Assembly: GCA_036386455.1 (NCBI GenBank)
Contig: DASVVS010000037.1
Span: 15,713-79,712 of the forward strand
Direction: 5' to 3'
Length of the DNA: 64,000 bases
From: Thermoleophilaceae bacterium
Lineage (GTDB): Bacteria > Actinomycetota > Thermoleophilia > Solirubrobacterales > Thermoleophilaceae
The notes under the pieces are model-generated. The model made no database searches and was not told the DNA's origin. It saw nothing but the letters and a program-made list of their open reading frames with translations. A program made the translations under genes and the position numbers. Each line of letters opens with the position of its first letter. The stretch's first letter is position 1. Below, piece by piece: positions 1,913-43,211 of the stretch.

Positions 1913-2724
1913 CAGTACTCGATGATCGTTCCCTTTCGGCGGCTACGCGCCAAGGCCCCCCTCAGGGTCAAGATCGACAAAGGAAGCAGAACCACCGTGA
2001 ATCCGACCAGCTTCGCCACGGCCGCGCCGGCCGGCTCCGCGAGCGGCGTTCCGACGAGCACGTTCCGCAGGAGGTCCACGGCCGGCGTGAACGGCTGGAC
2101 GTCCGAGGCCCATTCGATCCAGTCGGGCAGCAGCGCGACCGGGAAGTAGACGCCCGCCAGCAGCGTGACGCCGGTCATCACGAACGTCGCGCCGGCGTTG
2201 GTCCCCTTGAAGAGCACGACGGCCGCCGTGAGCAGCAGCCCGAACGGCGCGAACGCGACGGCGCCGAGCAGGCCGACCGGCAGGGCCAGGACGGCGGTGG
2301 ACCAGCGCACGTTGAGGCTGAAGACCAGGCCCGCGTAGGCGAGGGTGAGGAGCGCCATCGCGAAGGCGAGCAGGAGCGGGAAGAGCAGCAGCGAGGCGAT
2401 CGACCGGACCGGGCCGAACGGCGAGAGCACCATCCGCTCGAAGGTTCCCGCCTGGAGCTCGGCCCTCAGCGTGGCGACGGGCGTGATCAGCGTCGAGGTG
2501 AGCACGGTGAAGATCACGATCCCGACGACCACGAAGGCGTAGTAGTCGTCGGCCGAGCCGAAGCGCGGCGAGGAGACGAGCCGCGAGACGTAGTAGAAGA
2601 GCGTGACGCTCACGGCCGTCGTGAAGAACGTCGTGAAGAAGCGCGTGCGGTAGCTCGCGAAGATCAGCAGGTCGCGCTTGCAGATCGCGCCCGCGGCGCT
2701 CGCCAGTGCCGCCGCGTGCCTCAT
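1912..2724 (-). CDS. ABC-2 type transporter permease
   Basis: 270 aa from the internal ATG (cat 2722-2724) of shadow-extended ORF 1912..4155. About six hydrophobic helices with an ABC-2 (Wzm/DrrB-like) look. ATGA overlap with the ATPase gene. Confidence 0.85.
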   Translation of the reverse strand: MRHAAALASAAGAICKRDLLIFASYRTRFFTTFFTTAVSVTLFYYVSRLVSSPRFGSADDYYAFVVVGIVIFTVLTSTLITPVATLRAELQAGTFERMVLSPFGPVRSIASLLLFPLLLAFAMALLTLAYAGLVFSLNVRWSTAVLALPVGLLGAVAFAPFGLLLTAAVVLFKGTNAGATFVMTGVTLLAGVYFPVALLPDWIEWASDVQPFTPAVDLLRNVLVGTPLAEPAGAAVAKLVGFTVVLLPLSILTLRGALARSRRKGTIIEY

Positions 2725-3434
2725 GTCGCCTCCAGCCGCCCGTTCACCAGCACGTGGGCCGAGTCGATCCCGGGGATCTGCTCCCAGTGGGCCGGCAGGC
2801 AGGCGATCGCCGCCCCGCCGGCGGCCTTGAGCGACTCGATGGCCGCGCCGAGCAGCGCGATCCCCTCGTCGTCGAGGCTCGTGGTCGGCTCGTCGAGGAA
2901 GACCACCCTCGGCCCGTGCAGGAACCCGAGTGCCAGACGCAGGCGCTGGCGCTGGCCCATGGACATGCGGTCCACGCGCCGGCCGAGCAGCTCCTCGAGC
3001 GCGAAGTGGCTCGTCACGCGCTCGGTCGCCTCCCGGCGCTCCGCGCGCGGGATCAGGGCGAGCCGCGCCCACAGATCCAGGTGATGGCGCACCGAGAGTC
3101 GCGCGTAGAGCCCGCTGTTGCCCGCAGAGACGAACCCGGCATTGCGCTGGAACTCCGTGCGATCGCGCTCGGGGTCGAGACCCGCGAGCCTGACGCTGCC
3201 CTCCTCGGGCGCGATGAGGCCGACCCCGATGCGCAGCAGCGTGGTCTTGCCGGTGCCGTTGCGGCCGACGATCGCGATGGCGCTGCCGGCCGCCAGCGTC
3301 AGATCCACGCCCTCGAGCACGACCGGAACGCCCGGCCAGCGCTTCACGATCCCGCTGAGAACGAGCGGAGGCGGCGGCGCCCCCGCGCCGCTGCTCGATG
3401 TCTCCGAATCCGAAGTCACAGCGGCGCTCGCCAT
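2721..3434 (-). CDS. ABC transporter ATP-binding protein
   Basis: 237 aa. Walker A GRNGTGKTT, ABC signature MSMGQRQR, Walker B VVFLDEPT. Confidence 0.92.
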   Translation of the reverse strand: MASAAVTSDSETSSSGAGAPPPPLVLSGIVKRWPGVPVVLEGVDLTLAAGSAIAIVGRNGTGKTTLLRIGVGLIAPEEGSVRLAGLDPERDRTEFQRNAGFVSAGNSGLYARLSVRHHLDLWARLALIPRAERREATERVTSHFALEELLGRRVDRMSMGQRQRLRLALGFLHGPRVVFLDEPTTSLDDEGIALLGAAIESLKAAGGAAIACLPAHWEQIPGIDSAHVLVNGRLEAT

Positions 3435-3525
3435 CCAGCCGCTTATTGGAACACACCCCGGGGGATACGCGCCACCAGCGCGGATTGCCGCATCGCGGGT
3501 GATATCCAGCTTTAATGGTGTAGAG
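3435..3525. promoter_or_regulatory. Divergent intergenic/promoter region between the ABC-B1-kinase-B2 operon and the LPXTG gene
   Basis: 91-nt gap containing the most AT-rich stretch locally (gatatccagctttaatggtgtagag). A TTTAAT (3511-3516) -10-like hexamer lies about 10 nt before ATG 3526, so that mRNA could be leaderless or nearly so. No experimental support. Confidence 0.3.
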
Positions 3526-4044
3526 ATGCACGGATTGCATGGGCGCTACGCGCGACCCGAGGTCGCCGACTACGGGGGGCTGACGAAGATCACGGCGGCA
3601 GGAGCACTGCTGCTCGGCGCCGCCGAGGTCGACGACCTGAGCTTCAGCGCGCCGGGGCAGCCCGGCGGCGGCGGCACGCAGCCCGACCTGACTACGCCCG
3701 GCAACCGCGGCGATGGCGGCGATCCCGGCGGCGACGGGCCGGGCTTCAGTCCCGGCGGCACGCTGGTCGACGGCGCCGAGGTGCAGGGCGAGGCCGGCGC
3801 CGCCGAGGGCGGCGGCACGGGTGACGGCGGCGCGGGCGGCGGCTCGGGTGGCGGCTCCGGCGGCGGGTCCTCGGGCGGCGGCGCCTCGGGCGGCGGCGCA
3901 TCCGGCGGCGGCTCGGGCGGCGGCGGTGGCGGCGAGCTGCCGTTCACGGGCCTCGCCGCGGGCGCGGTCGCGGCGGCCGGCGCGGCGCTCACCGGCGCGG
4001 GGACCGCGCTGCGGCGGGCGGCGCGGAGACGCACCAGGCGCTAG
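3526..4044 (+). CDS. Glycine-rich LPXTG cell-wall-anchor protein with an N-terminal lasso-RiPP-type leader motif
   Basis: 172 aa from the internal ATG of ORF 3118..4044, with high GC3 in this frame. Residues 8-24 YARPEVADYGGLTKITA fit Y-x2-P-x-[LV]-x3-G-x5-T-x. The C-terminus is LPFTG (3937-3951), then GLAAGAVAAAGAALTGAGTAL, then RRAARRRTRR, a canonical sortase sorting signal. Confidence 0.7.
   Translation: MHGLHGRYARPEVADYGGLTKITAAGALLLGAAEVDDLSFSAPGQPGGGGTQPDLTTPGNRGDGGDPGGDGPGFSPGGTLVDGAEVQGEAGAAEGGGTGDGGAGGGSGGGSGGGSSGGGASGGGASGGGSGGGGGGELPFTGLAAGAVAAAGAALTGAGTALRRAARRRTRR
3808..3933 (+). repeat. Coding low-complexity Gly/Ser/Ala repeat (GGGS/GGGAS)n inside the LPXTG gene
   Basis: Residues 95-136 are GGGTGDGGAGGGSGGGSGGGSSGGGASGGGASGGGSGGGGGG, encoded by reiterated ggc-ggc-ggc-tcg/gcc units. 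Confidence 0.8.
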
Positions 4045-4071
4045 CGCTCCGGCGCGCCTTAAGCTCGCCGC

Positions 4072-5589
4072 ATGCCCGACCAGTCGGCGCCCGCCCCGGA
4101 TCGAGCGGCGATCGAGGAGCGCATCGCCCTCGGCGACCGCAGCCTCCGCGAGCACACGGCGCGCGGCACGATCATCAACGCGGCGTTCAGCGTCGGACTC
4201 GCCGGCCTCGGGCTGCTCCGGCAGCTCATCATCGCGGCGCTCCTGACCGCGTCGGAGTTCGGCCTCTGGGGCGTCATCTTCTTCTCAGCCACGGCGCTGA
4301 TCTTCCTGCTCGACGTCGGGCTGAGCGACAAGTTCGTGCAGCAGGCCGAGCGCGACCAGGAGGCCGCGTTCCAGAAGGCGTTCACGATCAACCTCGTCTG
4401 GCGGCTGGGGTTCTTCCTGATTTCCCTCGCGACCCTGCCGCTCTTCGCCGAGCTGTACGGCCGGCCCGAGATCGTCGTCCCCGGCATGGTCCTGTCGCTC
4501 GCGGTGATCGGGTCCGCGCTTCAGTCGCCGCTATGGATCTTCTATCGCGAGATGCGGTTCGCGCGCCAGCGCGCGCTGCACTCGATCGATCCGGTCGTGG
4601 GGCTCGTGGTAACGGCGATCCTGGGCGCCGCCGGCGCGGGCTACTGGAGTCTGATCATCGGGGGCGTGGTGGGTATCTGGGCCTCCGGCATCGTCGCGCT
4701 CGTCGCTTGCCCGTACCCGCTGCGCTGGCGGTTCGAGCGGCGGCTGTTCGGCGAGTACTTCTCGTTCTCGTGGCCGATCGTGCTCGCGTCGGCGAGCGGG
4801 GTGGCGATGGTCCAGCTGGCGATCATCGTCGGAGAGGACACGGTCGGGCTCGCCGGCATCGGGGCGATCGGCCTCGCGGCGCAGGTCGGGCGCTTCGCCG
4901 AGCGCGTGGACCAGATCGTGACCCAGACCGTGTACCCGGCGATCTGCGCGGTGCGTGACAGGACCGACCTCCTGTTCGAGGCGTTCGTGAAGTCGAACCG
5001 GCTGGCACTGATGTGGGGCATGCCGTTCGGCCTCGCGCTCGTCCTGTTCGCGCCCGACCTGGTGGAGTACGTGTTCGGGGCGAAGTGGGACATCGCGGTG
5101 GGCCTGCTCCAGCTCTTCGGCGCGATGGCGGCGCTGTCGCAGATCGCCTTCAACTGGATGGCGTTCTTCCTCGCGACCGGCAACACGAAGCCGCTCGCGG
5201 TGAACCTCGGGCTGCAGCTCGTCACGTTCGCGGCCGTTGCAGTGCCGCTGATGTTCAGCGACGGCCTGACGGGCTATGGGATCGGGATGGCGTGCGTGCT
5301 GATCGTGGACCTGTGCGTGCGCGCGTACTTCCTGACGCGGCTCTTCTCGGGCTTCCAGATGCTGCGCCACACCGTCCGCGCGATCGCCCCGAGCGTTCCG
5401 GCGGTGGCCGCGGTGCTGGCGATGCGGCTCGTCGAGGGCGGGGGAGAGCGCACGCTCGGGCTGGCCGTCGCGGAGCTCGTGCTGTACGCCGCGGTCACCG
5501 TCGTGGCGACCTGGCTGACCGAGCGTGCGCTGATCCGCGAGGTGCTCGGCTACCTGCGCGGACGGGCCAAGACGCCGCAGCCCGCTTGA
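4072..5589 (+). CDS. Wzx-like oligosaccharide flippase (MOP/polysaccharide biosynthesis protein family)
   Basis: 505 aa with about 12-14 hydrophobic helices and typical Wzx/RfbX architecture. Starts 28 nt after the LPXTG gene stop. Confidence 0.8.
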   Translation: MPDQSAPAPDRAAIEERIALGDRSLREHTARGTIINAAFSVGLAGLGLLRQLIIAALLTASEFGLWGVIFFSATALIFLLDVGLSDKFVQQAERDQEAAFQKAFTINLVWRLGFFLISLATLPLFAELYGRPEIVVPGMVLSLAVIGSALQSPLWIFYREMRFARQRALHSIDPVVGLVVTAILGAAGAGYWSLIIGGVVGIWASGIVALVACPYPLRWRFERRLFGEYFSFSWPIVLASASGVAMVQLAIIVGEDTVGLAGIGAIGLAAQVGRFAERVDQIVTQTVYPAICAVRDRTDLLFEAFVKSNRLALMWGMPFGLALVLFAPDLVEYVFGAKWDIAVGLLQLFGAMAALSQIAFNWMAFFLATGNTKPLAVNLGLQLVTFAAVAVPLMFSDGLTGYGIGMACVLIVDLCVRAYFLTRLFSGFQMLRHTVRAIAPSVPAVAAVLAMRLVEGGGERTLGLAVAELVLYAAVTVVATWLTERALIREVLGYLRGRAKTPQPA

Positions 5590-6461: not shown

Positions 6462-7364
6462 TCAGGAGCCCGCCGGGGCCGGCGGCTCGAACTGCTGGCG
6501 GCTCACCACGCCGTGCTGGCGCGCGGCCTGGCGGGCGAGGTAGATGCGCGTGGCCGCCACGCGGCGGTCGAGGTGCCCGGTCGAGCCGGCCGGCAGCCCG
6601 AGCTTCTGGAAGAGCCGCCCCACCTGCTTCTCGACCGCCTTCTCGCTCTTCCACAGGCGGCGGCCGATCTCCCGGTTGCGCAGCCCGGACGCCACCAGCT
6701 CCATCACGTCGCGCTCGGACTGCGTCAGCTCGAGGTCCTCCTCCTCGTGCGGGTCCGAGCTGAGCTGCCGCAGCAGAGCCGCGTCGAACGTCGAGCGGCC
6801 GCGCAGGACGGTGCGGATCATGTCCACGAAGTCGCGCGCGTCGAGGCGCTCGGCGTGGAAGGCGAGCGCGAAGCGGTCGGCGCTCTGGCCCACGAGCCGC
6901 TTGAGCCCGGCCTCGTCGGCCCGGCGCGCCAGCAGGCAGAGGCCCGTGCGCGGAAACTGCTCGCGTAGCTCACGGAGCGACTCGAGCGCGGACTCGTCGA
7001 GGTGGCCGCCGGCCCACGCGACCACCTCCGCGCCGCTCGACATGAAGCGGCGGGCACGGCTCGCCGAGCCGACGTAGATCGCGTCGATGTCCTGCGCGCG
7101 GTCGAGCAGCAGGGCGGCGCCGCGGACCAGCAGCGGCTCGTCCCCGGCCACGAGTACGACCGGGCGGCGCGGGCCCTCGCCCGCCGCTACCGCGTCCCCG
7201 CGCCGCGCCTCGGCGTCGAGCAGGAGCAGGCTCAGCTCGAGCGCGTCACGGGGCGGAATGCGGGGCAGGTCGGCCGCCGCCAGGAGCGCCAGCCGGGCGT
7301 GCCGCTGCTCGATCGCCCAGCGCAGCCGCTCGTGGGAAGGAGATCCGTGACGGGACACGAACAT
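6462..7364 (-). CDS. LuxR-family transcriptional regulator (C-terminal HTH, atypical N-terminal domain)
   Basis: 300 aa. The C-terminal LTQSERDVMELVASGLRNREIGRRLWKSEKAVEKQVGRLFQKLGL is a LuxR/GerE HTH. The N-terminal region is receiver-like but I could not identify canonical phospho-acceptor residues. Confidence 0.8.
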   Translation of the reverse strand: MFVSRHGSPSHERLRWAIEQRHARLALLAAADLPRIPPRDALELSLLLLDAEARRGDAVAAGEGPRRPVVLVAGDEPLLVRGAALLLDRAQDIDAIYVGSASRARRFMSSGAEVVAWAGGHLDESALESLRELREQFPRTGLCLLARRADEAGLKRLVGQSADRFALAFHAERLDARDFVDMIRTVLRGRSTFDAALLRQLSSDPHEEEDLELTQSERDVMELVASGLRNREIGRRLWKSEKAVEKQVGRLFQKLGLPAGSTGHLDRRVAATRIYLARQAARQHGVVSRQQFEPPAPAGS

Positions 7365-11574: not shown

Positions 11575-12497
11575 GCGACCCGGCGCTGTCGGTCGTCATC
11601 CCGACGCACGGCCGCGCCGAGCTGCTCGCGCGCGTGATCCGGTACCTCGAGCGCGAGCGCGACGCGCCCGAGTTCGAGCTGATCGTCGTCACGGACGCCC
11701 GGGCAGAGAAGGTGGACGCGGTCCGCGCGGCGGTCCAGGGCAGCCGGCTCGACGCGCGCCTGCTGGCGGCCGCGCGCCCCGGCGCCTCCGCCGCCCGCAA
11801 CGTCGGCTGGCGCGCGGCGCGGGCGCCGATCGTGCTGTTCATCGGCGACGACACGCTGCCCGAGGGCCACCTGCTCGCGGGCCACATGGAGTGGCACGAG
11901 CGCCATCCCGAGGAGGCGGTGGCCGTCCTCGGACGCGTGCGCTGGGCCGACGAGATCGAGGTCACGCCGTTCATGCGCTGGCTCGACGCCGGCATCCAGT
12001 TCGACTTCGCGAACATCGAGGGGACCGACGTCGGCTGGGGTCGCTTCTACACCGCCAACTCGTCGATCAAGCGCTCGCTCATCGAACGCGTGGACGGCTT
12101 CGACGAGGAGCGCCTGCCGTTCCTGTACGAGGACCTGGACCTCGCCTACCGGCTCCAGCCGTTCGGCTTCCGGCTGCTCTACAACCGCGAGGCGTCGGTC
12201 GAGCACGTGCATCCCGTGACGGTCGAGGAGTGGAAGGGGCGCGCGGCCGCCGTGGCCGCCGCCGAGCGCGAGTTCGTCCGCCTGCATCCGGACGTGCCGC
12301 CGTACTTCTACAACCTCTTCTCGGAGGCGGCGAGAATGCCGCCCGCTCGCGGCCGCGGCGTGAAGCTCGCGCGCTGGGTGCCGCGCGGGGCCCCGGTGAT
12401 CGGGAAGCGCGTCTGGCATCTTGCGGACGTAGCGTGGCGCCAGGCCCTCGCCGAGCCCTTCCTCGCGGAGTGGGAGAACGACGAGGCGGTGGCGTGA
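11571..12497 (+). CDS. Glycosyltransferase family 2
   Basis: 308 aa. LSVVIPTHGRAELL...ELIVVTDA...ARNVGW...FIGDDT...YEDLDLAYR. GTGA overlaps on both sides. Confidence 0.88.
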   Translation: MSDPALSVVIPTHGRAELLARVIRYLERERDAPEFELIVVTDARAEKVDAVRAAVQGSRLDARLLAAARPGASAARNVGWRAARAPIVLFIGDDTLPEGHLLAGHMEWHERHPEEAVAVLGRVRWADEIEVTPFMRWLDAGIQFDFANIEGTDVGWGRFYTANSSIKRSLIERVDGFDEERLPFLYEDLDLAYRLQPFGFRLLYNREASVEHVHPVTVEEWKGRAAAVAAAEREFVRLHPDVPPYFYNLFSEAARMPPARGRGVKLARWVPRGAPVIGKRVWHLADVAWRQALAEPFLAEWENDEAVA

Positions 12498-14047
12498 GCG
12501 AACGCGCCGAACGCCTCGCCGGCGCGACGCTGGCGGTGCTCGCCTCGCTCGCGGTCGTCTACGTCGCCTGGAAGCTGCGCGACGACCACGTCGGCGACGC
12601 CACGATCTACCTCGCCTACGCGGAGAACGCGGGCGAGGGGCGCCCGTTCCAGTTCAACGAGGGCGAGTTCTCCTCGGGCAGCACGTCGCCGCTCTGGTCG
12701 CTGATCCTGGGGGTGCCGTATGCGTTCGGCGGCGGGATCGGCGCCGCGAAGGTCCTGGCGGCGCTGTTCGCCGTGGGGGCGGTGCTGGCCGTCTTCCACG
12801 CGGCGCGCGAGATCAGCGGGTCGTGGCTCGCCGCCGGCGCCGCGACGCTGTTCGTGCCGGGCGCGATGACCTTCTATCCCGTCTCGCTCTACGAGTCGGG
12901 CCTGATCGTGGCGCTGAGCGCTCTGTCGCTCGTGGCGATGAGCCGCGTCTACGCGTGCTGGCGCGACGAGGGCGAGCTGGCGCTGCGCACGGCGCTGCCG
13001 CTGGTCGCGATCTGGGCGGCGCTGCCGCTGTCGCGGCCGGACGCCGTCCTCCTCGTGGCGGCCGAGGCGGTCGCGCTGCTGGCCTTCGCGCCGGTACCGC
13101 GCGGCGCGGCGCTGCGCGCGCTCGTGCCCCTCGCCGCGCTTGCGACGCTGCCGTCGGTCGCCTACTTCGGCTACTCGATCGCCGCGACGGGCACCGCGTC
13201 CACGTCGTCGGACGCCCGCTCCTACGCGCTCCAGGAGGTCGCCAGGGAGTTCGTGGGGCCGCTCTACCGCAACGCCGACGCGCTGCGCGAGGTGGTCGGC
13301 AGCCCGTGGATCTTCTCGCTGCTGCCGGCCCTCGCGGGGCTCTTGCTGCTGGCGCGGCGGGCGGACGCGCGCTGGCTTGCCGCCCACGGCGCGCTTTCGA
13401 TCGCGGGCTATCTGTTCCTACTCACGTTCGTCGCCCCGGGCTTTTACGACTCGCCGCGCTACCTGCTGCCGGTCGTGCCGATCGTCGTGTGCGCGGTCGC
13501 CTACCTGCTCGCCCGGGCGAGCGGCGGCGCGCTGCGGGCCGCGGCGCTCGCCGCGGCCGTCCTCGTGATCGGCCTCGCCACGGCCGACCGGCTGAACGAC
13601 GACCTGGACCTGATCGCGGGCTTCGGGATCGACGAGCGCGAGGTGTTCTCCAAGGAGCCGGTGGCAGTCGTGAACCGGATGGCGCGACCCGGCGACGTGC
13701 TGCTCTCCTACGAGGTGCAGCTTCGCCTGTTCCTGCGCGACGACGTGAAGGTCTTGAGCCAGGACGGAATCATCGACGGCGAGGTGCGCGAGTACCAGGA
13801 GAGCCGCGACATGACCGGGTTTCTGCGCGAGCAGCGCCCGGACTGGTGGATCGCCGACCAGAACGTCAACACGCGGCCATACCTGCGCGGCAGCGTGCTC
13901 GAGCGGGTCTTCGACGCGTTCAAGGCCGACCCGACGCTGCGCTCGCGCTCGTACGAGGGGATCCGCTTCGAACTCGTGAAGCGGCGCAGGCGACCCCTGC
14001 AGCCGGGCTTCGGGGGCTGGCAGATGCTCTTCCGGGTCAGCTATTAA
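12494..14047 (+). CDS. Polytopic membrane protein, GT-C-like (ArnT/PMT-type) glycosyltransferase candidate
   Basis: 517 aa from an internal GTG (12494) of ORF 11549..14047. Roughly 10 hydrophobic helices followed by a soluble domain of about 130 aa. Assignment is by architecture only. Confidence 0.55.
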   Translation: MSERAERLAGATLAVLASLAVVYVAWKLRDDHVGDATIYLAYAENAGEGRPFQFNEGEFSSGSTSPLWSLILGVPYAFGGGIGAAKVLAALFAVGAVLAVFHAAREISGSWLAAGAATLFVPGAMTFYPVSLYESGLIVALSALSLVAMSRVYACWRDEGELALRTALPLVAIWAALPLSRPDAVLLVAAEAVALLAFAPVPRGAALRALVPLAALATLPSVAYFGYSIAATGTASTSSDARSYALQEVAREFVGPLYRNADALREVVGSPWIFSLLPALAGLLLLARRADARWLAAHGALSIAGYLFLLTFVAPGFYDSPRYLLPVVPIVVCAVAYLLARASGGALRAAALAAAVLVIGLATADRLNDDLDLIAGFGIDEREVFSKEPVAVVNRMARPGDVLLSYEVQLRLFLRDDVKVLSQDGIIDGEVREYQESRDMTGFLREQRPDWWIADQNVNTRPYLRGSVLERVFDAFKADPTLRSRSYEGIRFELVKRRRRPLQPGFGGWQMLFRVSY

Positions 14048-14060
14048 GGTCGCGGTCCCG

Positions 14061-15278
14061 GTGCGAATTCTCGCGGTCAGCAACATGTATCCACCCGACT
14101 ACCTCGGGGGGTACGAGCTCCAGTGCAAGCAGACGGTCGAGGGTCTGCGGCGGCTCGGACATCACGTCGAGGTGCTCACCGTCGGGATGGATATGCCCGA
14201 GCCCGACCCGCTGGTGCACCGCACCCTCCGCTGGCACGATCCGCCACCGGGTGAGCCGGACGTTCGCTGGGAGGCGCGCCGGGTGCGGGCCTACATCGCC
14301 AACTACCGAGCCGCGCAGCGTGTGACCGCCCAGGTCAGGCCGGATCTGGTCATGGGCTGGGCGCCCCTGCGCATCGGCCTGCACTGCCTGGCCCCCGCTT
14401 GCCGAACGGGGACCCCGGCGGTCCACTTCGCCGGTGACTGGTCGATCGTCGAGGAGTGGCGCCTGCTGAACCGCTGGGCCGCCAGGTCCTGGGCGGATCG
14501 TCCGCCGCTGTCCAGCACGCTGGTGCGCTGGCCGCTGCGGCGACTCGCCCGCCCCGTGCGGTTCGACCACGTCGTGATGGTGAGCCAGTACCTGCGCGGC
14601 AGCTACCAGGCGCTCCGCTTCCCGACGCCCGGCATGAGCGTGATACACCAGGGCGCCCGGTTCGAGCTCCCTGATCTGGCCACGCTGCCGGAGGGCGAGC
14701 CCGACACGCTCGTCTACCTGGGCAGGCTGGAGCGCGTCAAGGGCGTGCACCTGGCGATCGATGTGCTCCGCCGCCTGCGTGACGACCACGGCCGCGACAA
14801 GACCCGGCTGACGATCGTGGGGGGACCGAGCCTGGAGGACCACTCGTACCGAGGGGAACTCGAGAACCAGGTCGCGTCACACGGCCTGACCGACCGCGTG
14901 ACGTTCGCAGGGAAGCGCTCGCCGGCGGGGGTCTCGGAGGTGCTGCCCCGCCACCGCGTGATGTTGATGACATCGCTGTGGGAGGAGCCCGGCGCGGCAA
15001 CGCAGCTCGAGGCCATGGGGCATGGCGTGCCCGTCGTGGCGACCGACGTCGGCGGCACGCCGGAGTACGTGCGTGACGGCGCCGAGGGGTTCGTGGTCCA
15101 GCGGGACCGTCCCGACAAGATGGCGGCCGCGGTGGCGCGGCTGCTAGAGGACCACGACCTCTGGCGACGGTTCCGCACCGCGGGCTGGGAGCGCGTGGCC
15201 GGCCACCTGAGCGAAGAGCGCTACCTGGCCGACGTCGACGAGCTGCTCACCCGAGTTCGCCGAGCCGCAGTCTCCTAG
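14061..15278 (+). CDS. Glycosyltransferase family 4 (paralogue of 8944..10155)
   Basis: 405 aa. MRILAVSNMYPPDYLGGYE... and ...LVYLGRLERVKGVH...TSLWEEPGAATQLEAMGHGVPVVATDVGGTPEYVRDGAEGFV. Confidence 0.88.
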   Translation: MRILAVSNMYPPDYLGGYELQCKQTVEGLRRLGHHVEVLTVGMDMPEPDPLVHRTLRWHDPPPGEPDVRWEARRVRAYIANYRAAQRVTAQVRPDLVMGWAPLRIGLHCLAPACRTGTPAVHFAGDWSIVEEWRLLNRWAARSWADRPPLSSTLVRWPLRRLARPVRFDHVVMVSQYLRGSYQALRFPTPGMSVIHQGARFELPDLATLPEGEPDTLVYLGRLERVKGVHLAIDVLRRLRDDHGRDKTRLTIVGGPSLEDHSYRGELENQVASHGLTDRVTFAGKRSPAGVSEVLPRHRVMLMTSLWEEPGAATQLEAMGHGVPVVATDVGGTPEYVRDGAEGFVVQRDRPDKMAAAVARLLEDHDLWRRFRTAGWERVAGHLSEERYLADVDELLTRVRRAAVS

Positions 15279-23720: not shown

Positions 23721-24869
23721 TCAGACGGCGGTGTTCACGCGACCGGAGTCGCGCAGCTTCTCGAACGTCGACAGCGCCTGGCCGACCACCTGGTCCATGT
23801 CCAGGTACTGGTAGCGGGCGAGCCGGCCCACGAAGGTCACGTTCGGCAGCTCGTCCGTGAGCGCGGCGTAGCGCTTGTAGAGCGCCCGGGTCTCGTCGTT
23901 CGGGATCGGGTAGTACGGGTCCCCCTCGCTGCGCGGGTACTCGTACGCGATGGTCGACGACGTGTGCGGCTGCCCGGTCATGTAGCGGAACTCGGTCGTT
24001 CGGGTGTACGGCACTTCCTCGGTCGGGAAGTTGATCGAGGCCGCGGGCTGCACGAGCCCGCCGTCCGGCGTCGGCTCGTTCACCAGCTCGAACTCGAGGC
24101 TGCGGTAGGGCAGCGGCCCGAAGCGGAAGTCGAAGTAGCGGTCGACCGGCCCCGTGTAGACGAGGTGGTCGTAGCCGAACCTCTCGCCCTCCTCGTGGAA
24201 GTCGATGCCCAGCCGCACCTCGATGCGCGGGTGGTCGAGCATCCGCTCGAACATCGCCGTGTAGCCGTCGGCCGGCATCTTCTGGTGCCAGTTCGTGAAG
24301 TAGCGGTCGTCGGTGTTCGTGCGCGTGGGGATGCGCGCGCACACCGAGGCGTGAAGCTCCGACGGGTCGCGCTGCCACTGCTTGCGCGTGTAGCCGCGGA
24401 AGAACTTCTCGTAGAGGTCGCGGCCGACCTTCGAGACGACCGAGTCCTCGCTGTTGCGCACGTACTCGATCGGCTCGGCGCGCTCGGCGTAGAAGGCCTC
24501 GCACTCCTCGTCGGTCTGGAGGTCCAGCCCGTAGAGCATGTTGATCGTGGTGCGGTTGATCGGGATCGGCAGGAGCTGCTCGCCGACCTTCGACACCACC
24601 CGGTGCTCGTACGGGCGCCAGTCGGTGAAGCGCGACAGGTAGTCGACGACGTGCGCGGCGTTCGTGTGGAAGATGTGCGGCCCGTACCTGTGGACGAGGA
24701 CGCCGTGCTCGTCCACGTAGTCGTACGCGTTTCCGGCGATGTGGTCGCGCTTGTCGATCACGAGCACCGCGTGGCCGCACTCGGTCGCGAGGCGCTCGGC
24801 GAGGATGGTGCCGGCGTATCCGGCGCCGACTACGAGTGTGTCGAAGCGTTCCATTGGGGGCGGAGGCAT
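23721..24869 (-). CDS. glf: UDP-galactopyranose mutase
   Basis: 382 aa. FDTLVVGAGYAGTILAERLA...VLVIDKRDHIAGNAYD...YGPHIFHTN...GYTRKQW...VGRLARYQYLDMDQV. Matches Glf end to end. The start may be the second Met (24854). Confidence 0.95.
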   Translation of the reverse strand: MPPPPMERFDTLVVGAGYAGTILAERLATECGHAVLVIDKRDHIAGNAYDYVDEHGVLVHRYGPHIFHTNAAHVVDYLSRFTDWRPYEHRVVSKVGEQLLPIPINRTTINMLYGLDLQTDEECEAFYAERAEPIEYVRNSEDSVVSKVGRDLYEKFFRGYTRKQWQRDPSELHASVCARIPTRTNTDDRYFTNWHQKMPADGYTAMFERMLDHPRIEVRLGIDFHEEGERFGYDHLVYTGPVDRYFDFRFGPLPYRSLEFELVNEPTPDGGLVQPAASINFPTEEVPYTRTTEFRYMTGQPHTSSTIAYEYPRSEGDPYYPIPNDETRALYKRYAALTDELPNVTFVGRLARYQYLDMDQVVGQALSTFEKLRDSGRVNTAV

Positions 24870-32048: not shown

Positions 32049-33662
32049 TTGACCGACCCCGTAACCACCGAGGGTCTGGAGATCCAGGACGACGTGCGCG
32101 AGTCGGACGACTCCGTGCCCGCCTACAGCGGCCCGAAGCTCGTCGACCAGAAGCCGGTCGCCCTCGGCTCCGGTCGCCCCGACACGGTCGACCCGCTCGA
32201 CTTCCCGCCCGTTCAGCGCGCGGTCCAAGAGCTCGCCGAGCTCGACGCCGAGGTGCGCACGCCGGCGCGGCCGATCCGCGAGGGCGACCGCACCCGCGAG
32301 GTGCTCGGCCGCGACGCGCTGGTCCGCCGCCTGCTCGCGGGGGCCGACGTGCTCGCCGCCGCGCTCGCCCTGAACGTCGCGATCCTCAGCGGCGGGGCGA
32401 GCCCCACGCTCGCGGTCGTCGTCGCGATCCTGATGGTGGTCCCGATCGGCAAGATCCTCGGCCTCTACGACCGCGACGAGCACGTCCTCCACAAGACGAC
32501 GCTCGACGAGGCCCCGACGCTGCTCCAGGTCGCGATGATCCACGCCGTCTCGGCGTGGCTGCTCGACGGCGTGCTCGCGAGCGGCGCGCTCGGCAAGCCG
32601 CAGGTCGTGCTCGCGTGGCTGCTGCTGTTCGTCTCGATGGGCACCTTCCGCACGATCGCGCGCCGGATCGGCCTCACGGCCGCACCCGCGGAGCGGCTGC
32701 TCGTGCTCGGCTCCAGCGACGAGGCCGACCGCATGCGCGAGAAGCTCGCCACGCTCAAGCCGCTGAAGGCCGAGGTCGTGGGCCGCGTGCCTGTCGCTCG
32801 CGAGCGCCGGGCCGAGCGCGGCGAGGACGTGCTCGGGATCATGGAGGACCTCGACTACGTCCTCGCGGTCAACCGCGTGGACCGCGTCGTGATCTGCCCG
32901 CACGGCGGCGACTCGCACGCCATGCTCGACACGATCCGCCTGGTCAAGGGGCTGGGCGTGAAGGTCAGCCTGATGCCGCGGCTGTTCGAGGTCGTCGGCA
33001 CCTCGGTCGAGTTCGACCAGCTCGGCGGGCTCACGCTGCTCGGCCTGCGCCGCTACGACCTGTCGAAGTCCTCGGCGATGCTCAAGCGCGTGTTCGACGT
33101 CGTCGGCGCGTCCACCGTGCTGGTGGTCCTGGCGCCGCTCTTCGCCACGATCGCGGTCGCCATCAAGCTGACCTCCCACGGGCCGGTCTTCTTCCGCCAG
33201 CGCCGGATCGGCCGCGGCGGCGAGGCGTTCGCGATGTTCAAGTTCCGCACGATGTACGACGGGGCGGACCGGCAGAAGGCCGAGCTCCGGCACCGCAACG
33301 AGGCGGACGGCTTCTTCAAGATCACCGACGACCCGCGCGTCACGTCGGTTGGGCGCTGGCTGCGTAAGGCGTCGCTCGACGAGCTCCCGCAGCTCCTCAA
33401 CGTGCTCCGCGGTGAGATGAGCCTCGTGGGCCCGCGGCCGCTGGTGGACGAGGAGGACTCGCGGATCGAGGGCTGGTTCCGCCGCCGGCTCGACATCACG
33501 CCCGGGATGACCGGTGCGTGGCAGGTGCTCGGCTCCTCGCGCATCCCGATGCGCGACATGGTCACGATCGACTACCTGTACCGCACCAACTGGTCGCTCT
33601 GGCTCGACCTGAAGATCCTGCTGCGCACCGTGCCGCACGTGCTGCTGCGCCGGGGCTGCTGA
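32049..33662 (+). CDS. Initiating polyprenyl-phosphate sugar phosphotransferase (WbaP/CpsE-type bacterial sugar transferase)
   Basis: 537 aa. N-terminal TM block plus a central domain. The C-terminal KRVFDVVGAS...LAPLFATIAVAIKLTSHGPVFFRQRRIGRGGEAFAMFKFRTM...SLDELPQLLNVLRGEMSLVGPRP is the PGT catalytic domain. TTG start. Confidence 0.92.
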   Translation: MTDPVTTEGLEIQDDVRESDDSVPAYSGPKLVDQKPVALGSGRPDTVDPLDFPPVQRAVQELAELDAEVRTPARPIREGDRTREVLGRDALVRRLLAGADVLAAALALNVAILSGGASPTLAVVVAILMVVPIGKILGLYDRDEHVLHKTTLDEAPTLLQVAMIHAVSAWLLDGVLASGALGKPQVVLAWLLLFVSMGTFRTIARRIGLTAAPAERLLVLGSSDEADRMREKLATLKPLKAEVVGRVPVARERRAERGEDVLGIMEDLDYVLAVNRVDRVVICPHGGDSHAMLDTIRLVKGLGVKVSLMPRLFEVVGTSVEFDQLGGLTLLGLRRYDLSKSSAMLKRVFDVVGASTVLVVLAPLFATIAVAIKLTSHGPVFFRQRRIGRGGEAFAMFKFRTMYDGADRQKAELRHRNEADGFFKITDDPRVTSVGRWLRKASLDELPQLLNVLRGEMSLVGPRPLVDEEDSRIEGWFRRRLDITPGMTGAWQVLGSSRIPMRDMVTIDYLYRTNWSLWLDLKILLRTVPHVLLRRGC

Positions 33663-39128: not shown

Positions 39129-40937
39129 GTGTGCGGGATAGCCGGGTGCGTCGCCGCGCCCGGGCGCGAGCCCGATCGCGAGGCGCTCCGCCGGATGGCG
39201 GCCGCGCTCGCGCACCGCGGCCCCGACGACGAGGGGATCGCCGTCGACGGGCAGGTCGGGCTTGTGCAGCGCCGGCTCGCGATCGTGGACCCGTCGCCCG
39301 CGGGGCACGCGCCGATGGAGGACGCGGGCGGGCGCTGGCTCGTCACCTACAACGGCGAGGTCTTCAACCACCTCGAGCTGCGCGCCGAGCTGCCCTGGGT
39401 CCGCTGGCGCGGGGGTAGCGACACCGAGACGCTCGTCGAGGCGCTCGCGCACTGGGACGAGGCGGCGGTGCCGCGCTGCAACGGGCTGTTCGCCTGGGCG
39501 GCGCTCGACCGCGAGCGGCGGCGGCTCGTGCTGGTCCGCGACCGCTTCGGGGTGAAGCCGCTGTACATGGCCCGGCACGCGGGGGCGCTCTGGTTCGCGA
39601 GCGAGATGCGCGCGCTGCTCGAGGCCGGCGTGGCGCGCGACGTCCGGCGCGACGTGCTCGCCCACGCGGTGGAGCGCGGCTGGGCGAACGGCCGGCGCAC
39701 GCCGCTCGCGGCCGTCGAGCGCGTGATGCCGGGGACGCTCGTGGAGGTGGACCTCGAGACGCTCGCGACGGCCGAGCGCACCTGGTACGACCCGCTCGAG
39801 ACGGTGGGCGGGGGCTCCGGCTCCGCCCCCGATCCGCGGCTCCTCGAGGACGCACTCCGCGGGGCCGTGCGCCGCCGCCTGATGGCCGACGTCCCGCTCG
39901 GGACGATGTGCTCGGGCGGGCTCGACTCGAGCCTGATCACGGCGCTGGCGGCGGAGGCCGGCACCGTGCACGCGTTCAACGCGCGGATCGTGGACCAGCC
40001 CGAGTGGGACGAGGGCCGCTGGGCGCGCGAGGTGGCCGAGCACGTGGGGGTCGAGCTGCACACCGTCGAGATGACCGCGGCCGAGTGGCGCGCCGGGCTC
40101 GTGGACGTGGTCCGCCACGTCGAGTATCCGCTCACCCACGAGAGCTCGGTGCCGATGGCGGCGATCGCCCGGCTGGCCCGCGAGCGCGGCGTCAAGGTGC
40201 TGCTGAGCGGCGAGGGCGCGGACGAGCTGTTCGGCGGCTACTCGTGGGTCCACCACCACGCGTCCGCGGACTTCGCCGCGCGCCGCCGGCCCGCGGCGGC
40301 GGCGGCGCGGGCCGCGCTGCGGGCGGCGCAGCGGCGCGGCGTGCTGGCCGGCCGCGCGATCCCCGACCCGTTCCCCGGCCCCTCGGACGAGGTGAACGCG
40401 TACGAGCGCGAGCGCTTCGGGGCGGCCCTGGCCGCCTACGCGCACCACCGCGGCCCGCGCCGGCGCCTGGAGGCCGGGCTGGCGGCCGATCTCTCGACCT
40501 ACCTCCCGCACCTGCTCAACCGCCAGGACAAGACGACGATGATGCACTCGGTCGAGACGCGGGTGCCGTTCCTCGACCCGGAGGTGGTGGCGCTGGCCCT
40601 GAACATGCCGCTCGAGCACCGGGTCGAGCCCGAGCGCAAGGCGCCGTTGCGCGCGCTGGGCCGGGGGCTCCTGCCGGCGAGCGTCGTCGCGCGCGAGAAG
40701 GTGGGCTTCGGCTTCGACGTCGGCCGCTACCTGGGCGGCGCCGTGCGCGAGGAGTTCATGCGCGGCGGGCGCCTGCGCGAGGAGCTGGGCGTGGCGCGCG
40801 CGGAGTGGGATCCGCGCGTGGGGGAGCTGTGCGCGAGCCTCGCCCCGCTGACGGCGGAGATCTGGCTGCGGACCGTCGCCGGCGGCGAGTTGCCAGACGC
40901 CGTGCAGGCGGAGCTGTGGGCCCCGGCGCGCCCGTAG
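39129..40937 (+). CDS. Asparagine synthase (glutamine-hydrolysing)-type amidotransferase
   Basis: 602 aa. N-terminal MCGIAG (Cys2 nucleophile), ...YNGEVFNH.EL..., and the PP-loop-like MCSGGLDSSLI. By context it may amidate a sugar acid rather than Asp. Confidence 0.88.
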   Translation: MCGIAGCVAAPGREPDREALRRMAAALAHRGPDDEGIAVDGQVGLVQRRLAIVDPSPAGHAPMEDAGGRWLVTYNGEVFNHLELRAELPWVRWRGGSDTETLVEALAHWDEAAVPRCNGLFAWAALDRERRRLVLVRDRFGVKPLYMARHAGALWFASEMRALLEAGVARDVRRDVLAHAVERGWANGRRTPLAAVERVMPGTLVEVDLETLATAERTWYDPLETVGGGSGSAPDPRLLEDALRGAVRRRLMADVPLGTMCSGGLDSSLITALAAEAGTVHAFNARIVDQPEWDEGRWAREVAEHVGVELHTVEMTAAEWRAGLVDVVRHVEYPLTHESSVPMAAIARLARERGVKVLLSGEGADELFGGYSWVHHHASADFAARRRPAAAAARAALRAAQRRGVLAGRAIPDPFPGPSDEVNAYERERFGAALAAYAHHRGPRRRLEAGLAADLSTYLPHLLNRQDKTTMMHSVETRVPFLDPEVVALALNMPLEHRVEPERKAPLRALGRGLLPASVVAREKVGFGFDVGRYLGGAVREEFMRGGRLREELGVARAEWDPRVGELCASLAPLTAEIWLRTVAGGELPDAVQAELWAPARP

Positions 40938-40948
40938 AATCACCGAAC

Positions 40949-41899
40949 GTGGCGGAGGGACTCGACACGGTTGCGCCGCCGGCGGCCTCCCAGCAGCGCG
41001 CTGCCACCTTCGAGGGCACCTGGCGCGGGACGCTCCCCGGCGGGATCTTCCGCGCGCTGCGGCCCAAGCAGTGGCTGAAGAACGTGCTCGTGGCCGCGGC
41101 GCCGGGCGCGGCGGGCGTGCTCACCGATGCCGGCGTGCTGCTCGACGTGGCTCTCGCGTTCGTCGCCTTCTGCATGGTCTCGAGCGCGACCTACCTCGTG
41201 AACGACGCGCGCGACGTGGAGGCCGACCGCCTGCACCCGCGCAAGCGCTTCCGCGCGATCGCCGCGGGGACCGTGTCGGTGCGGCTCGCGCTCGCGCTCG
41301 CGCTGCTGCTGCTGCTGGGCGGCTTCGCCGTGGCGGCCGTGGTCCGGATCGAGCTGCTGGTCGTGGTCGCCTCCTACGTGACCCTCACGACCGCCTACAC
41401 GCTCTGGCTCAAGCACGTCGAGGTGGTCGACATCGTGGCCATCGCGTCGGGCTTCATCCTGCGCGCGGTGGCGGGCGGCGCCGCGGTCGACGTGCCGCTG
41501 TCGCGCTGGTTCATCATCGTCGCCTCGTTCGGCTCGCTCTTCATCGTCGCCGGCAAGCGCCACGGCGAGCACATCGACCTCGACGAGTCGCGCGGGGCGA
41601 TCCGCTCCACGCTCGCGGGCTACTCGCGCGACTACCTCAAGTACGTGTGGACGATGGCCTCCGGCGTGACGATCGCCGCCTACTGCCTGTGGGCGTTCGA
41701 GATGGCGCCGCGCGACAGCGAGGTGCCGCTCTACGAGCTGTCGATCGTCCCGTTCGTGACGTTCATGCTGCGCTACGCGCAGCTCCTCGAGGCCGGTCAC
41801 GGCGAGGCGCCGGAGGACGTCGTGCTGGGCGACCGCCTGCTGCAGGCGCTCGCCGCCGTCTGGATCGCGCTGTTCGGAGCGGGTGTCTACTTCCTCTGA
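40949..41899 (+). CDS. Decaprenyl-phosphate phosphoribosyltransferase (UbiA-family DPPR synthase, Rv3806c-like)
   Basis: 316 aa from the internal GTG 40949 of ORF 39908..41899. [12 protein letters not shown]...[26 protein letters not shown]... (UbiA NDxxD motif). About 8 TM helices. Adjacent to dprE1/dprE2. Confidence 0.85.
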
Positions 41900-43211
41900 A
41901 GCCCTGCTCACCGGCTGGGGCCTGACCGCGCCTTCGCGAGCGGAGGTGGTGGAGGCCAGCGCCGAGAGCATCGCCGCCACGCTCGCCGACCCCGGCCCGC
42001 GCGGGGTGCTGGCGCGGGGCCTCGGGCGCAGCTACGGCGACGCCGCCCAGAACGCCGGCGGCCGCGTGCTGCTGATGGAGGAGCTGGCGAAGGTGCACGC
42101 GGTGGACCTCGCGAGCGGGATCGTGACCGTGGACGCGGGCGTGAGCATCGAGACGCTCACGCGCACGCTGCTGCCGCTCGGGCTGTTCGTGCACGTGACG
42201 CCGGGCACCTGGTTCGTGACCGTGGGCGGCGCGATCGCGGCGGACGTGCACGGCAAGAACCACCACGCCGACGGCTCGTTCTGCGACCACGTGCTCGCGT
42301 TCGACCTGATGACCCCGGACGGCGAGGTCAGGACGGTGGAGCCGGGCGACGAGCTGTTCGGCGCGACCGCCGGCGGCATGGGCCTGACCGGCGTGATCCT
42401 GCGGGCCACGCTCAGGATGCTGAAGGTCGCGTCGCCGAACATGGTCGTGGATCGCGAGCGCTGCGCCGACCTCGACGACGTGATGGCGCGCATGGCCGCG
42501 CGCGACGACGAGTACCGCTACTCCGTGGCGTGGATCGACTGCCTCGCGCGCGGCCGGAACATGGGCCGCTCGGTCCTGATCCGCGGCGACCACGCGCCCG
42601 AGGCCGGGTCCAACGGGCACTTCGGCGGGCTGCGGATCAGCGCCCCGCCGTTCGTGCCGGGCGGCCTGCTCAACCGCACGACGCTCCGCGCCTTCAACGA
42701 GGCCTACTACCGCGCCGCGCCCAAGCGCGAGACCGGGCGCCGCGAGGGGGTGCGCGAGTTCTTCTACCCGCTCGACGCGGTGGGGAGTTGGAACCGCATC
42801 TACGGGCCGAGCGGCTTCCTCCAGTACCAGCTCGTGGTGCCGTACGGGCGCGAGGACGCCCTCCGCGAGTCGCTCGAGCGCCTCTCCGGCGCGGGCGCGC
42901 CGTCGTTCCTCGCGGTGCTCAAGCGCTTCGGCGCGCAGCGGACCGGCATGATCTCGTTCCCGATGGAGGGCTGGACGCTCGCACTCGACATCCCGGCGAC
43001 CGTGCCGGGGCTCGCGCCGCTGCTCGACGGCCTCGACGAGGTCGTGGCCGAGGCCGGCGGCCGCGTGTACCTGGCCAAGGACTCGCGCCTGCGCCCGGAC
43101 GTGCTCGCCTCGATGTACGGGCGGCTCGGCGAGTGGCGCGCCGCGCGCGAGCGGGTCGACCCCGGCGGCGTGATGCGCTCGGACCTGGCGCGGCGGCTGG
43201 AGCTCGTATGA
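41883..43211 (+). CDS. dprE1: Decaprenylphosphoryl-beta-D-ribose 2'-oxidase (FAD)
   Basis: 442 aa. [14 protein letters not shown]...[14 protein letters not shown]...[15 protein letters not shown]...YLAKDSR...DLARRLELV. Collinear with my recollection of M. tuberculosis DprE1 to the last residues. Confidence 0.9.

Follow-up and report, generated by a model that had tools for sequence, protein, structure and literature searches.

A lasso-type leader paired with a sortase-type sorting signal on a protein encoded beside a paeninodin-like lasso cluster in a Thermoleophilaceae bacterium

The leaders of RiPPs, peptides that are synthesised ribosomally and then modified post-translationally, are viewed as handles for small, released peptides. 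In lasso systems of the paeninodin and pseudomycoidin type, an HprK-like kinase phosphorylates the C-terminal Ser of the linear lasso precursor, and PsmN adds a hexose to that phosphate (PMC9266682). The Linear Polyphosphorylated Peptides (LPPs) of Bacillota are encoded by clusters embedded in capsule loci, in many cases with a paeninodin-like lasso cluster alongside (Popov et al., Nat Commun 2026, PMC13381572). Their precursors are linear and 35-200 amino acids (aa) long, with YxxPxV in the N-terminus and variable C-termini, and they are polyphosphorylated on a Ser close to where cleavage occurs; neither the end product nor its function is known, and LPPs and paeninodins are both stated to be restricted to Bacillota (PMC13381572). 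Here we analyse a 64,000-nucleotide (nt) stretch of contig DASVVS010000037.1 of a Thermoleophilaceae bacterium (the window), in which the open reading frame (ORF) 3526-4044 (+) encodes a 172-aa protein that begins with a lasso-type leader and ends with a sortase-type sorting signal. Our results suggest, with a probability that we put at about 0.5, that the paeninodin-like lasso machinery encoded next to it has in this long protein a second, linear substrate, in effect a lasso precursor without its ring and with a stalk and a wall anchor added. It thus seems that peptide-antibiotic machinery serves here in the maturation of a protein anchored to the cell wall, and not only of a free peptide.

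The ORF and its translation were as the first-pass annotation of this DNA had given them. The protein reads MHGLHGRYARPEVADYGGLTKITA-AGALLLGAAEVDDLSFS-(Gly/Pro/Asp/Ser-rich, 96 aa)-LPFTG-LAAGAVAAAGAALTGAGTAL-RRAARRRTRR, and its four parts follow each other on the plus strand. The leader (residues 1-24; 3526-3597) contains Y8-x2-P11-x-V13, D15-Y16-G17-x-L19 and T23-A24, and the spacing claimed earlier, Y8-x2-P11-x-V13-x3-G17-x5-T23-A24, is indeed present; B2 cleavage is predicted after A24, with Thr at -2. Next comes a head (residues 25-41, AGALLLGAAEVDDLSFS; 3598-3648; family consensus xxHPLLGxAGxxDLSFS), which ends in the invariant pair F40-S41. It is followed by a low-complexity Gly/Pro/Asp/Ser spacer (residues 42-137; 3649-3936), variable in length and composition among the homologues. 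The sorting signal (3937-4041) consists of LPFTG at residues 138-142 (3937-3951), an Ala/Gly-rich hydrophobic segment and the tail RRAARRRTRR at residues 163-172. Note that the hydrophobic segment has 20 residues (L143-L162) and not the 21 given by the first-pass annotation, which was right about the pentapeptide and the tail.

By its sequence, the N-terminus is a genuine lasso-type leader and no look-alike, as had been proposed. In support of this, a leader hidden Markov model (HMM) built from 137 distinct short lasso precursors of Solirubrobacterales and related metagenome-assembled genomes (MAGs) matched the long ORF with E=2.1e-6 (22.9 bits), the next best among the 783 six-frame ORFs of the window reaching 0.12. 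Moreover, the relaxed motif [YW]xxPx[VILAFY]xxxGxxxxxT occurs twice in the six frames of the window, in the long ORF and in an out-of-frame junk ORF. Given this near-absence and the HMM score, a chance motif was rejected. The leader residues Y8, P11, D15, G17, L19 and T23 are also invariant in 28 homologues, the motif (Y8, P11, V13, G17, T23) is kept in about 100 clusters of homologues, and the leader is a close paralogue of the leader of a short precursor encoded by the same locus (YARPEVADYGGLTKITA versus YEKPKVSDYGTLGTLTA).

The homologues are numerous, and form a conserved family of small Gly-rich, predicted surface proteins of soil actinobacteria (Thermoleophilia). A word-indexed search returned more than 50 of them, 100-230 aa long, some being named Thermoleophilaceae or Solirubrobacteraceae MAG proteins. 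In an exhaustive search of 1.84 billion representatives, a 44-column profile of the N-terminal module matched 111 clusters (50% identity) at E<=1e-3 and, of these, 40 at E<=1e-10; the top match of that search, P0069, is a eukaryotic kringle-repeat protein and was discarded as a false positive. In the alignment of 28 sequences, Y8, P11, D15, G17, L19, T23, F40, S41, L138-P-F-T-G142, G152, G159 and L162-R163 are invariant. The conserved parts are thus the lasso determinants for the RiPP recognition element (RRE) and B2, the F-S pair 17 residues past the predicted cleavage site, and the sorting signal. Members of the family span 87-283 aa, with a conserved N-terminal module of 43 aa and a spacer that varies from about 10 aa (the 87-aa P0075) to about 200 aa, rich in Thr, Pro and Gly (the 283-aa protein of L051). 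Because LPFTG is invariant (28/28), and because head and sorting signal are kept in P0075 while the spacer shrinks, the anchor appears to be under selection. All three elements of an LPXTG sorting signal are present at the C-terminus, and 'ELPFTG' is common to this family and to classical Sec-signal LPFTG proteins from the same search. Among the papers searched, none links lasso leaders to LPXTG or sortase. This agrees with the novelty that the first-pass annotation had seen in a wall-anchored protein with a lasso leader, and the pairing of lasso-type leader and sortase signal on one protein is new.

Some observations on individual members belong here. The L051 gene (L051:5513-6364, +; CAVRTA010000006.1, a Solirubrobacteraceae MAG) encodes a Thr/Pro/Ala-rich spacer with TPTATATETPT repeats, and on its 8-kb piece it is flanked by MlaE/MlaF-like ABC genes and Bac_transf, with no lasso genes. 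CAVRTA010000006.1 also bears the lasso cluster of L013. There, two PqqD/HprK sets lie side by side (L013:1-7800, -): an ABC-ABC2-PqqD-HprK-NTP_transf_5 set, with neither B2 nor cyclase between kinase and transferase, and a PqqD-HprK set with a cyclase and two short precursors ending in ...HHVP(A)PDP(Q)xSSPSGP. This layout is like the paired lasso/LPP arrangement described in Bacilli. The representative search also returned P0105 (382 aa) and P0109 (199 aa), with 4-5 tandem lasso-leader-like units (for example PYEAPALFDHGRVEKATG...FSN..SDRDSKEGFAPVD). Multi-leader proteins of this kind are unfamiliar to us; P0105 ends in a segment similar to the self-cleaving chaperone domains known from phage tail fibres.

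Next to the long gene stands a complete lasso operon, divergently transcribed across an intergenic region of 91 nt (3435-3525), and both the gap and the gene content reported by the first-pass annotation (ABC exporter, B1, HprK-like kinase, B2 and probable cyclase) were confirmed, the latter with Pfam and NCBIfam. All of its genes are on the minus strand. The first encodes a DrrA-like ABC transporter ATPase (2721-3434; PF00005, 1.2e-26), and it is followed by a DrrB-like ABC-2 type permease (1912-2724; PF01061, 4.9e-16). The only B1 of the cluster, an RRE protein of the PqqD family (1598-1912; PF05402, 5.9e-15; lasso_PqqD_Strm, 1.6e-11), has TbiB1 (5v1u, E 2.9e-8) and then LppB (9x8z, E 1.3e-3) as its nearest solved structures. 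The HprK-like kinase (625-1614) has the P-loop GPTGAGKT, matches to HprK_rel_B (1.7e-7) and Hpr_kinase_C (1.5e-5) that are both under the curated cut-offs, and precomputed ScmC/Hpr_kinase_C matches. The B2 leader peptidase (200-619) is a transglutaminase-like Cys protease (NF033537 lasso_biosyn_B2, 76.9 bits, cut-off 33; PF13471, 1.3e-21). Finally, about 60 N-terminal codons of an AsnB-like lasso cyclase, its start codon uncertain, lie at 1-196, and the frame runs past the window start. The source contig, ena:ERZ27253090:k141_572712 (L001; 134.8 kb), gives the DNA beyond the window and carries the full cyclase gene (L001:10603-12204, 533 aa; Asn_synthase; lass_lactam_cya, 2.5e-37).

Directly after the cyclase, about 1.9 kb beyond the window start, L001 encodes a 43-aa precursor (12372-12503, +), MSYEKPKVSDYGTLGTLTA followed by GTQDGQFTDRDFPVNTPRDEITFS. 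Its gene is preceded by a strong ribosome-binding site (Shine-Dalgarno AAGGAGG), and its core, GTQDGQFTD...EITFS, has Gly1, Asp9 and a C-terminal Ser. With NF033521 (lasso_leader_L3) it scored 18.5 bits, the cut-off being 19. Behind it come an NTP_transf_5 gene (PF14907; L001:12520-13662) and one for a HEAT-repeat protein (13611-14906). The 43-aa peptide is a conventional lasso precursor of the kinase/nucleotidyltransferase (paeninodin/pseudomycoidin) kind. Note that an ordinary short precursor beside the cyclase, just outside the window, was what the first-pass annotation had named as telling against its reading; it exists, and the cyclase has thus an ordinary substrate. The short family has the consensus xYExPxVxDYGxLxELTAGxxDGxFTDAxFPxxTPxxDLTFS, with an invariant Asp9, and DLTFS stands at the very end or has no more than 1-3 residues behind it.

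Other short precursors were seen as well. Relatives of the 43-aa precursor ending in DLTFS are common in soil metagenomes. A very widespread Solirubrobacterales family (L016-L124, for example L016, L026, L031 and L064), found in dozens of species-level genomes, reads YE(A/T)P(R/Q)VVDYGDLQELTA followed by ACLGG(S/T)GGDAGYPG..GGY(T/S)VGPSNPAAGCKSNP; with its two conserved Cys it may represent a disulfide-bridged lasso class. Scans with DNA patterns returned mostly short lasso precursors on 8-kb or short contigs, and added little context for the long gene. In metagenome contigs, a narrower alignment of the long family matched 600 stretches, none of which passed a tblastn check, probably owing to the masking of low-complexity sequence.

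The long N-terminal module is homologous to the short precursor family over the whole length of the latter (hhalign, 98.2% probability, E 2.8e-14). In this alignment the DLSFS of the long family falls on the DLTFS of the short one, and a gap of 7 residues covers the ring region with the invariant Asp9. The long protein thus opens with a derived copy of a full lasso precursor, minus the ring-closing residue; it retains the leader, and also the motif surrounding the Ser which in characterised relatives is the kinase target. As the first-pass annotation had pointed out, the first acidic residue past A24 is E34 (+10). Across the family, only 2/33 members have D/E at core positions +7 to +9, while an acidic residue is conserved at about +13. 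Moreover, 148 residues lie beyond the predicted cleavage site, and the typical short lasso core has about 15-25 aa.

The gene neighbourhood was compared in eight close ('DLSFS') loci: the window, L009, L010, L011, the P0018 locus, L155, L156 and L006. ABC-ABC2-PqqD adjoins the long gene in 8/8, the kinase is present in 8/8 (partial in L156) and B2 in 7/7 readable loci. Six have the cyclase; L006 has none, and the contig of L156 ends too early to tell. All eight loci lie among glycosyltransferase, Wzx, Wzy and Bac_transf genes. In L006, a 137-kb contig, the long gene is divergent from ABC-ABC2-PqqD-HprK-B2-NTP_transf_5; a cyclase was found neither by Pfam nor by tblastn, and 20 kb hold no short precursor and no leader-bearing ORF other than the long gene. 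The long protein can thus be the only substrate of B1, B2, kinase and NTP transferase. The rare D/E at +7 to +9, the lack of a cyclase in L006 and of any other leader ORF there make a canonical or enlarged lasso unlikely. Of the two options left by the first-pass annotation, an unusual ring is therefore disfavoured, and leader recognition and cleavage without ring formation is the better reading, to which we can now add a likely modification site, S41 in DLSFS, and the LPP precedent (PMC13381572).

In a second, more distant branch, leader and LPFTG are retained, but the leader is followed by a hydrophobic segment and by 'SP[LI]xPGG' where the close homologues have DLSFS. Its genes (L012:9887-10360; L074, about 3394, -; L034, from 4359; L061, about 3362, -; L008:10001-10543) adjoin HEAT and NTP_transf_5 genes, and in L008 also an HprK-like gene. 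The co-occurrence with B1 and B2 that the first-pass annotation had suggested tabulating holds for the close homologues, but not for this branch on the DNA covered.

We propose the following route. The single B1/RRE would bind the Y8xxP11xV13 leader, as it would the nearly identical leader of the 43-aa precursor. The HprK-like kinase would then phosphorylate S41 of the invariant DLSFS, the counterpart of the C-terminal or near-C-terminal Ser in the short DLTFS, a modification predicted by analogy with paeninodin and LPP biochemistry (PMC9266682, PMC13381572), and the NTP_transf_5 enzyme may elaborate this phosphate further. B2 would remove the leader after T23-A24, and no macrolactam would be formed. 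Export could proceed via the divergent ABC-2 exporter or another Sec-independent route, and a sortase would cut between T and G of LPFTG and link the protein to peptidoglycan. The result would be a modified head of 17 residues on a flexible Gly-rich stalk, encoded inside a polysaccharide locus. A bolder version, in which RRE, B2, kinase, NTP transferase and ABC pump form a Sec-independent route of maturation and export, and the phospho-modified, possibly glycan-bearing head tethers or primes the polysaccharide of the locus on the wall, is put forward tentatively; we doubt it more than we believe it. Under this bolder version, the product would be the first of RiPP type with a covalent wall anchor, and a function would be suggested for the unexplained link of paeninodin and LPP clusters with capsule loci.

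Several results weigh against the proposal of a linear, wall-anchored substrate. The curated lasso leader model NF033521 gave no match to residues 1-47 of the long protein at E<=10. In Pfam and NCBIfam scans, neither the whole protein nor its N-terminal 47 aa or C-terminal 41 aa gave a useful match. The anchor models TIGR01167 and PF00746 were likewise silent on the whole protein and on its last 41 aa, and the sorting signal is read from LPFTG, hydrophobic segment and Arg tail; the only match was a weak one (NF058583 LAXTG_small_WW, E 0.068), and an Ala/Gly-rich anchor may simply score poorly with such models. No credible sortase motif (a TLxTC-like ORF) came to light in the window or among related loci totalling 1.2 Mb, and the literature searched on sortases of Thermoleophilia added nothing. 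The available DNA of L012, L074, L034, L061 and L008 has no B1/B2, so the leader may be read by something else in the distant branch. The DLSFS/DLTFS match comprises five residues only, and leader binding, phosphorylation, cleavage, export and anchoring are all steps that we infer, while homology, conserved residues, gene neighbourhood and the family-wide lack of a Sec signal are observed. No ABC-2 (DrrAB-like) pump is known to us that exports a polypeptide of about 150 aa, and export and sortase are the weakest links of the proposal.

Other explanations were weighed. That there is no real gene, the ORF being a chance frame in 79% G+C DNA or a decayed duplicate precursor running into Gly-rich sequence, could be argued from the several long ORFs that overlap here on both strands and from the zero Pfam/NCBIfam matches to the long protein. 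Yet its N-terminal module is matched by the 111 clusters described above (40 at E<=1e-10), conservation is found at both ends around a variable middle, an identical gene is called in 3 independent assemblies, and its G+C content at third codon positions (GC3, 0.91) is similar to that of the neighbouring genes; an ORF artefact was therefore rejected, and we give it next to no credence. LPXTG proteins normally require a Sec signal, and the long protein could belong to the polysaccharide locus as a plain LPXTG surface protein secreted through Sec, with a signal peptide that only resembles a lasso leader. Indeed, the window copy has ITAAGALLLGAA and then AA before EV, resembling an h-region and cleavage site, and the Wzx flippase gene begins 27 nt after the long gene. 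To judge this, the best 10-aa hydropathy (Kyte-Doolittle, KD) of the N-terminus was compared with that of classical LPFTG proteins with signal peptides from the same search. The most hydrophobic post-leader segment of the family is that of the window copy (ITAAGALLLG, KD 1.98), but family-wide the segment is non-hydrophobic (for example SFHPLLGQVTGQ), with a median of 1.14 and a range of 0.74-1.98, versus 2.26-3.39 for the true signals. On hydropathy, a Sec signal is no property of this family. Moreover, what is conserved is the lasso motif and no signal-peptide pattern, lasso precursors are matched significantly by HMM and profile alike, and B1/B2 synteny is found in 8/8 close loci. The signal-peptide reading was thus rejected as very improbable.

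Only slightly less improbable is a wall-tethered lasso, in which the amine of A25 or G26 would close a large or shifted macrolactam on E34 or the conserved D37 around the long tail, and a lasso knot would be displayed on the cell wall. A complete B1/B2/C set stands alongside in 6/8 close loci, the leader is canonical with Thr at -2, an acidic residue is conserved at about +13, and engineered lasso peptides tolerate C-terminal protein fusions. Known rings, however, have 7-9 residues, a position at which D/E is found in 2/33 members; the 7-residue deletion removes the region of Asp9; L006 keeps the long gene, B1, B2, kinase and NTP_transf_5 without a cyclase; and the cyclase has its conventional substrate next door. 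On acid positions, deletion and L006, a canonical or enlarged ring was rejected. The idea that the protein is a membrane-tethered decoy or scaffold, whose leader binds B1 to regulate the lasso machinery, localise it at the membrane near the ABC exporter or titrate it, and which is never cleaved or modified, also seems unlikely to us, if a little easier to entertain. With a single RRE for two very similar leaders, competition is expected, the promoter arrangement is divergent, and cross-talk among similar leaders was a real selective issue in the LPP work (PMC13381572). Against it, residues for processing and not for RRE binding are invariant too (T23 at -2, F40-S41, LPFTG), the topology predicted from the positive tail past the hydrophobic segment is N-out, so that the leader would face away from the cytoplasmic B1, and L006, which lacks a cyclase, has no other substrate to be regulated. 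We therefore favour the linear, modified and anchored substrate. With respect to the first-pass interpretation as a whole, the genuine leader, the sorting signal and the novelty of their pairing stand; the product is probably not a lasso, and a normal precursor lies next door.

The surroundings of the long gene can be described briefly. Antiparallel to it, a Pro-rich ORF of 154 aa (3570-4034, -; PPPPPPEPPPDAPPPEAPPP...) mirrors the run of GGN codons; it is almost certainly not a gene, and shows how easily spurious ORFs arise in G+C-rich low-complexity DNA. A scan of 3300-4300 for sigma-70 promoters and terminators found none, although a sigma-70-type consensus says little for this phylum. Downstream, the Wzx/MOP-type flippase gene (4072-5589, +; PF13440, 1.5e-36) begins a polysaccharide biosynthesis locus of about 40 kb (4072-43211), which holds many GT2/GT4 glycosyltransferase and S-adenosylmethionine (SAM) methyltransferase genes, together with that of a UDP-galactopyranose mutase (Glf; 23721-24869, -). 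A priming transferase (Bac_transf) is encoded at 32049-33662, a second amidotransferase of the AsnB type at 39129-40937 and an FAD/ALO oxidase at 41883-43211. Beyond the locus come genes for Trp, His and glycolysis. A candidate regulator of the locus is encoded at 6462-7364 (-), at a distance of 2.4 kb from the long gene; it is a 300-aa protein whose C-terminal domain is a helix-turn-helix of the GerE/LuxR type.

The point of interest is that a lasso-type leader and the kinase-target motif of a neighbouring precursor are conserved on a protein that looks like a sortase substrate and has no Sec signal. If the proposal is true, the newly described linear phosphorylated RiPP-like products are found beyond Bacillota, in deep-branching Actinomycetota, where another peptidase (B2) takes part, and the family offers a natural case of a lasso precursor that became a linear product through loss of the ring residue. 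RiPP tailoring would be tied to the anchoring of cell-wall proteins and, by its conserved location, to the synthesis of envelope polysaccharide. A surface-tethered member would make the role of paeninodin-like and LPP systems directly testable.

How does this family compare with the known systems? Of the features of a lasso precursor, the long protein has the leader motif and the B1, B2 and cyclase neighbours, and lacks a short core with D/E at 7-9. Like the paeninodin and pseudomycoidin systems, the locus combines A, B1, B2 and C genes with those of a kinase, an NTP transferase and an ABC transporter. The 43-aa neighbour fits this class (G1...D9 ring, C-terminal TFS), and the first 43 aa of the long protein are homologous to it; the long protein, in contrast, has no ring Asp, its Ser is internal, and about 130 further residues lead up to the sorting signal. 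Paeninodin leaders of Bacillota have WxxP, whereas both leaders here have YxxP. With LPXTG sortase substrates the protein shares LPxTG, the hydrophobic segment, the Arg-rich tail and a low-complexity stalk before the motif; the difference is the RiPP leader, which stands where a Sec-type signal peptide would be. As is reported for the lipidated macrocyclic RiPPs (PNAS 2026, PMC13056109), a RiPP precursor would be routed into a housekeeping pathway of envelope anchoring; those peptides take the lipoprotein pathway and receive a lipid anchor, whereas a sortase and a covalent peptidoglycan anchor are predicted here.

The closest likeness in outline is with the LPPs. The LPP core genes, a discrete RRE, a kinase of the HprK-like type, an NTP transferase (PF14907) and an exporter, are all found here; the precursors are long (87-283 aa here), with a conserved N-terminus bearing YxxP and a variable C-terminus; and a paeninodin-like lasso cluster lies alongside, within a polysaccharide locus. 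In LPPs a conserved Ser is (poly)phosphorylated and there is no macrolactam; a like product is predicted here, with the invariant F40-S41 and the cyclase-less L006 as indirect signs. The differences are as clear. The present family occurs in MAGs of Thermoleophilia (Actinomycetota). LPP clusters have a SipW-like signal peptidase (archaeal-type SpI) and a second RRE of their own, whereas here there is one RRE and a lasso B2; among the precomputed Pfam families of called neighbours within 10 kb, some of which are unannotated, no peptidase other than B2 was found. The LPP motif is YxxPxVLxHQxIxFETxxS with the phospho-Ser at +3, while the present family has YxxPxVxDYGxLxxxTA and its conserved Ser lies at +17. 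The LPP exporter is MsbA-like, the present one ABC-2, and PMC13381572 does not mention LPXTG or a sortase signal, whereas the family described here ends in an LPFTG sorting signal. Thus, judged on sequence features, this family is LPP-like in outline; it differs from true LPPs in peptidase, second RRE, extended motif and phylum, and it adds a predicted wall anchor. What is novel with respect to the LPP work is a RiPP-type leader that, as read from these proteins, replaces the signal peptide on a sortase-type surface protein across roughly 100 clusters.

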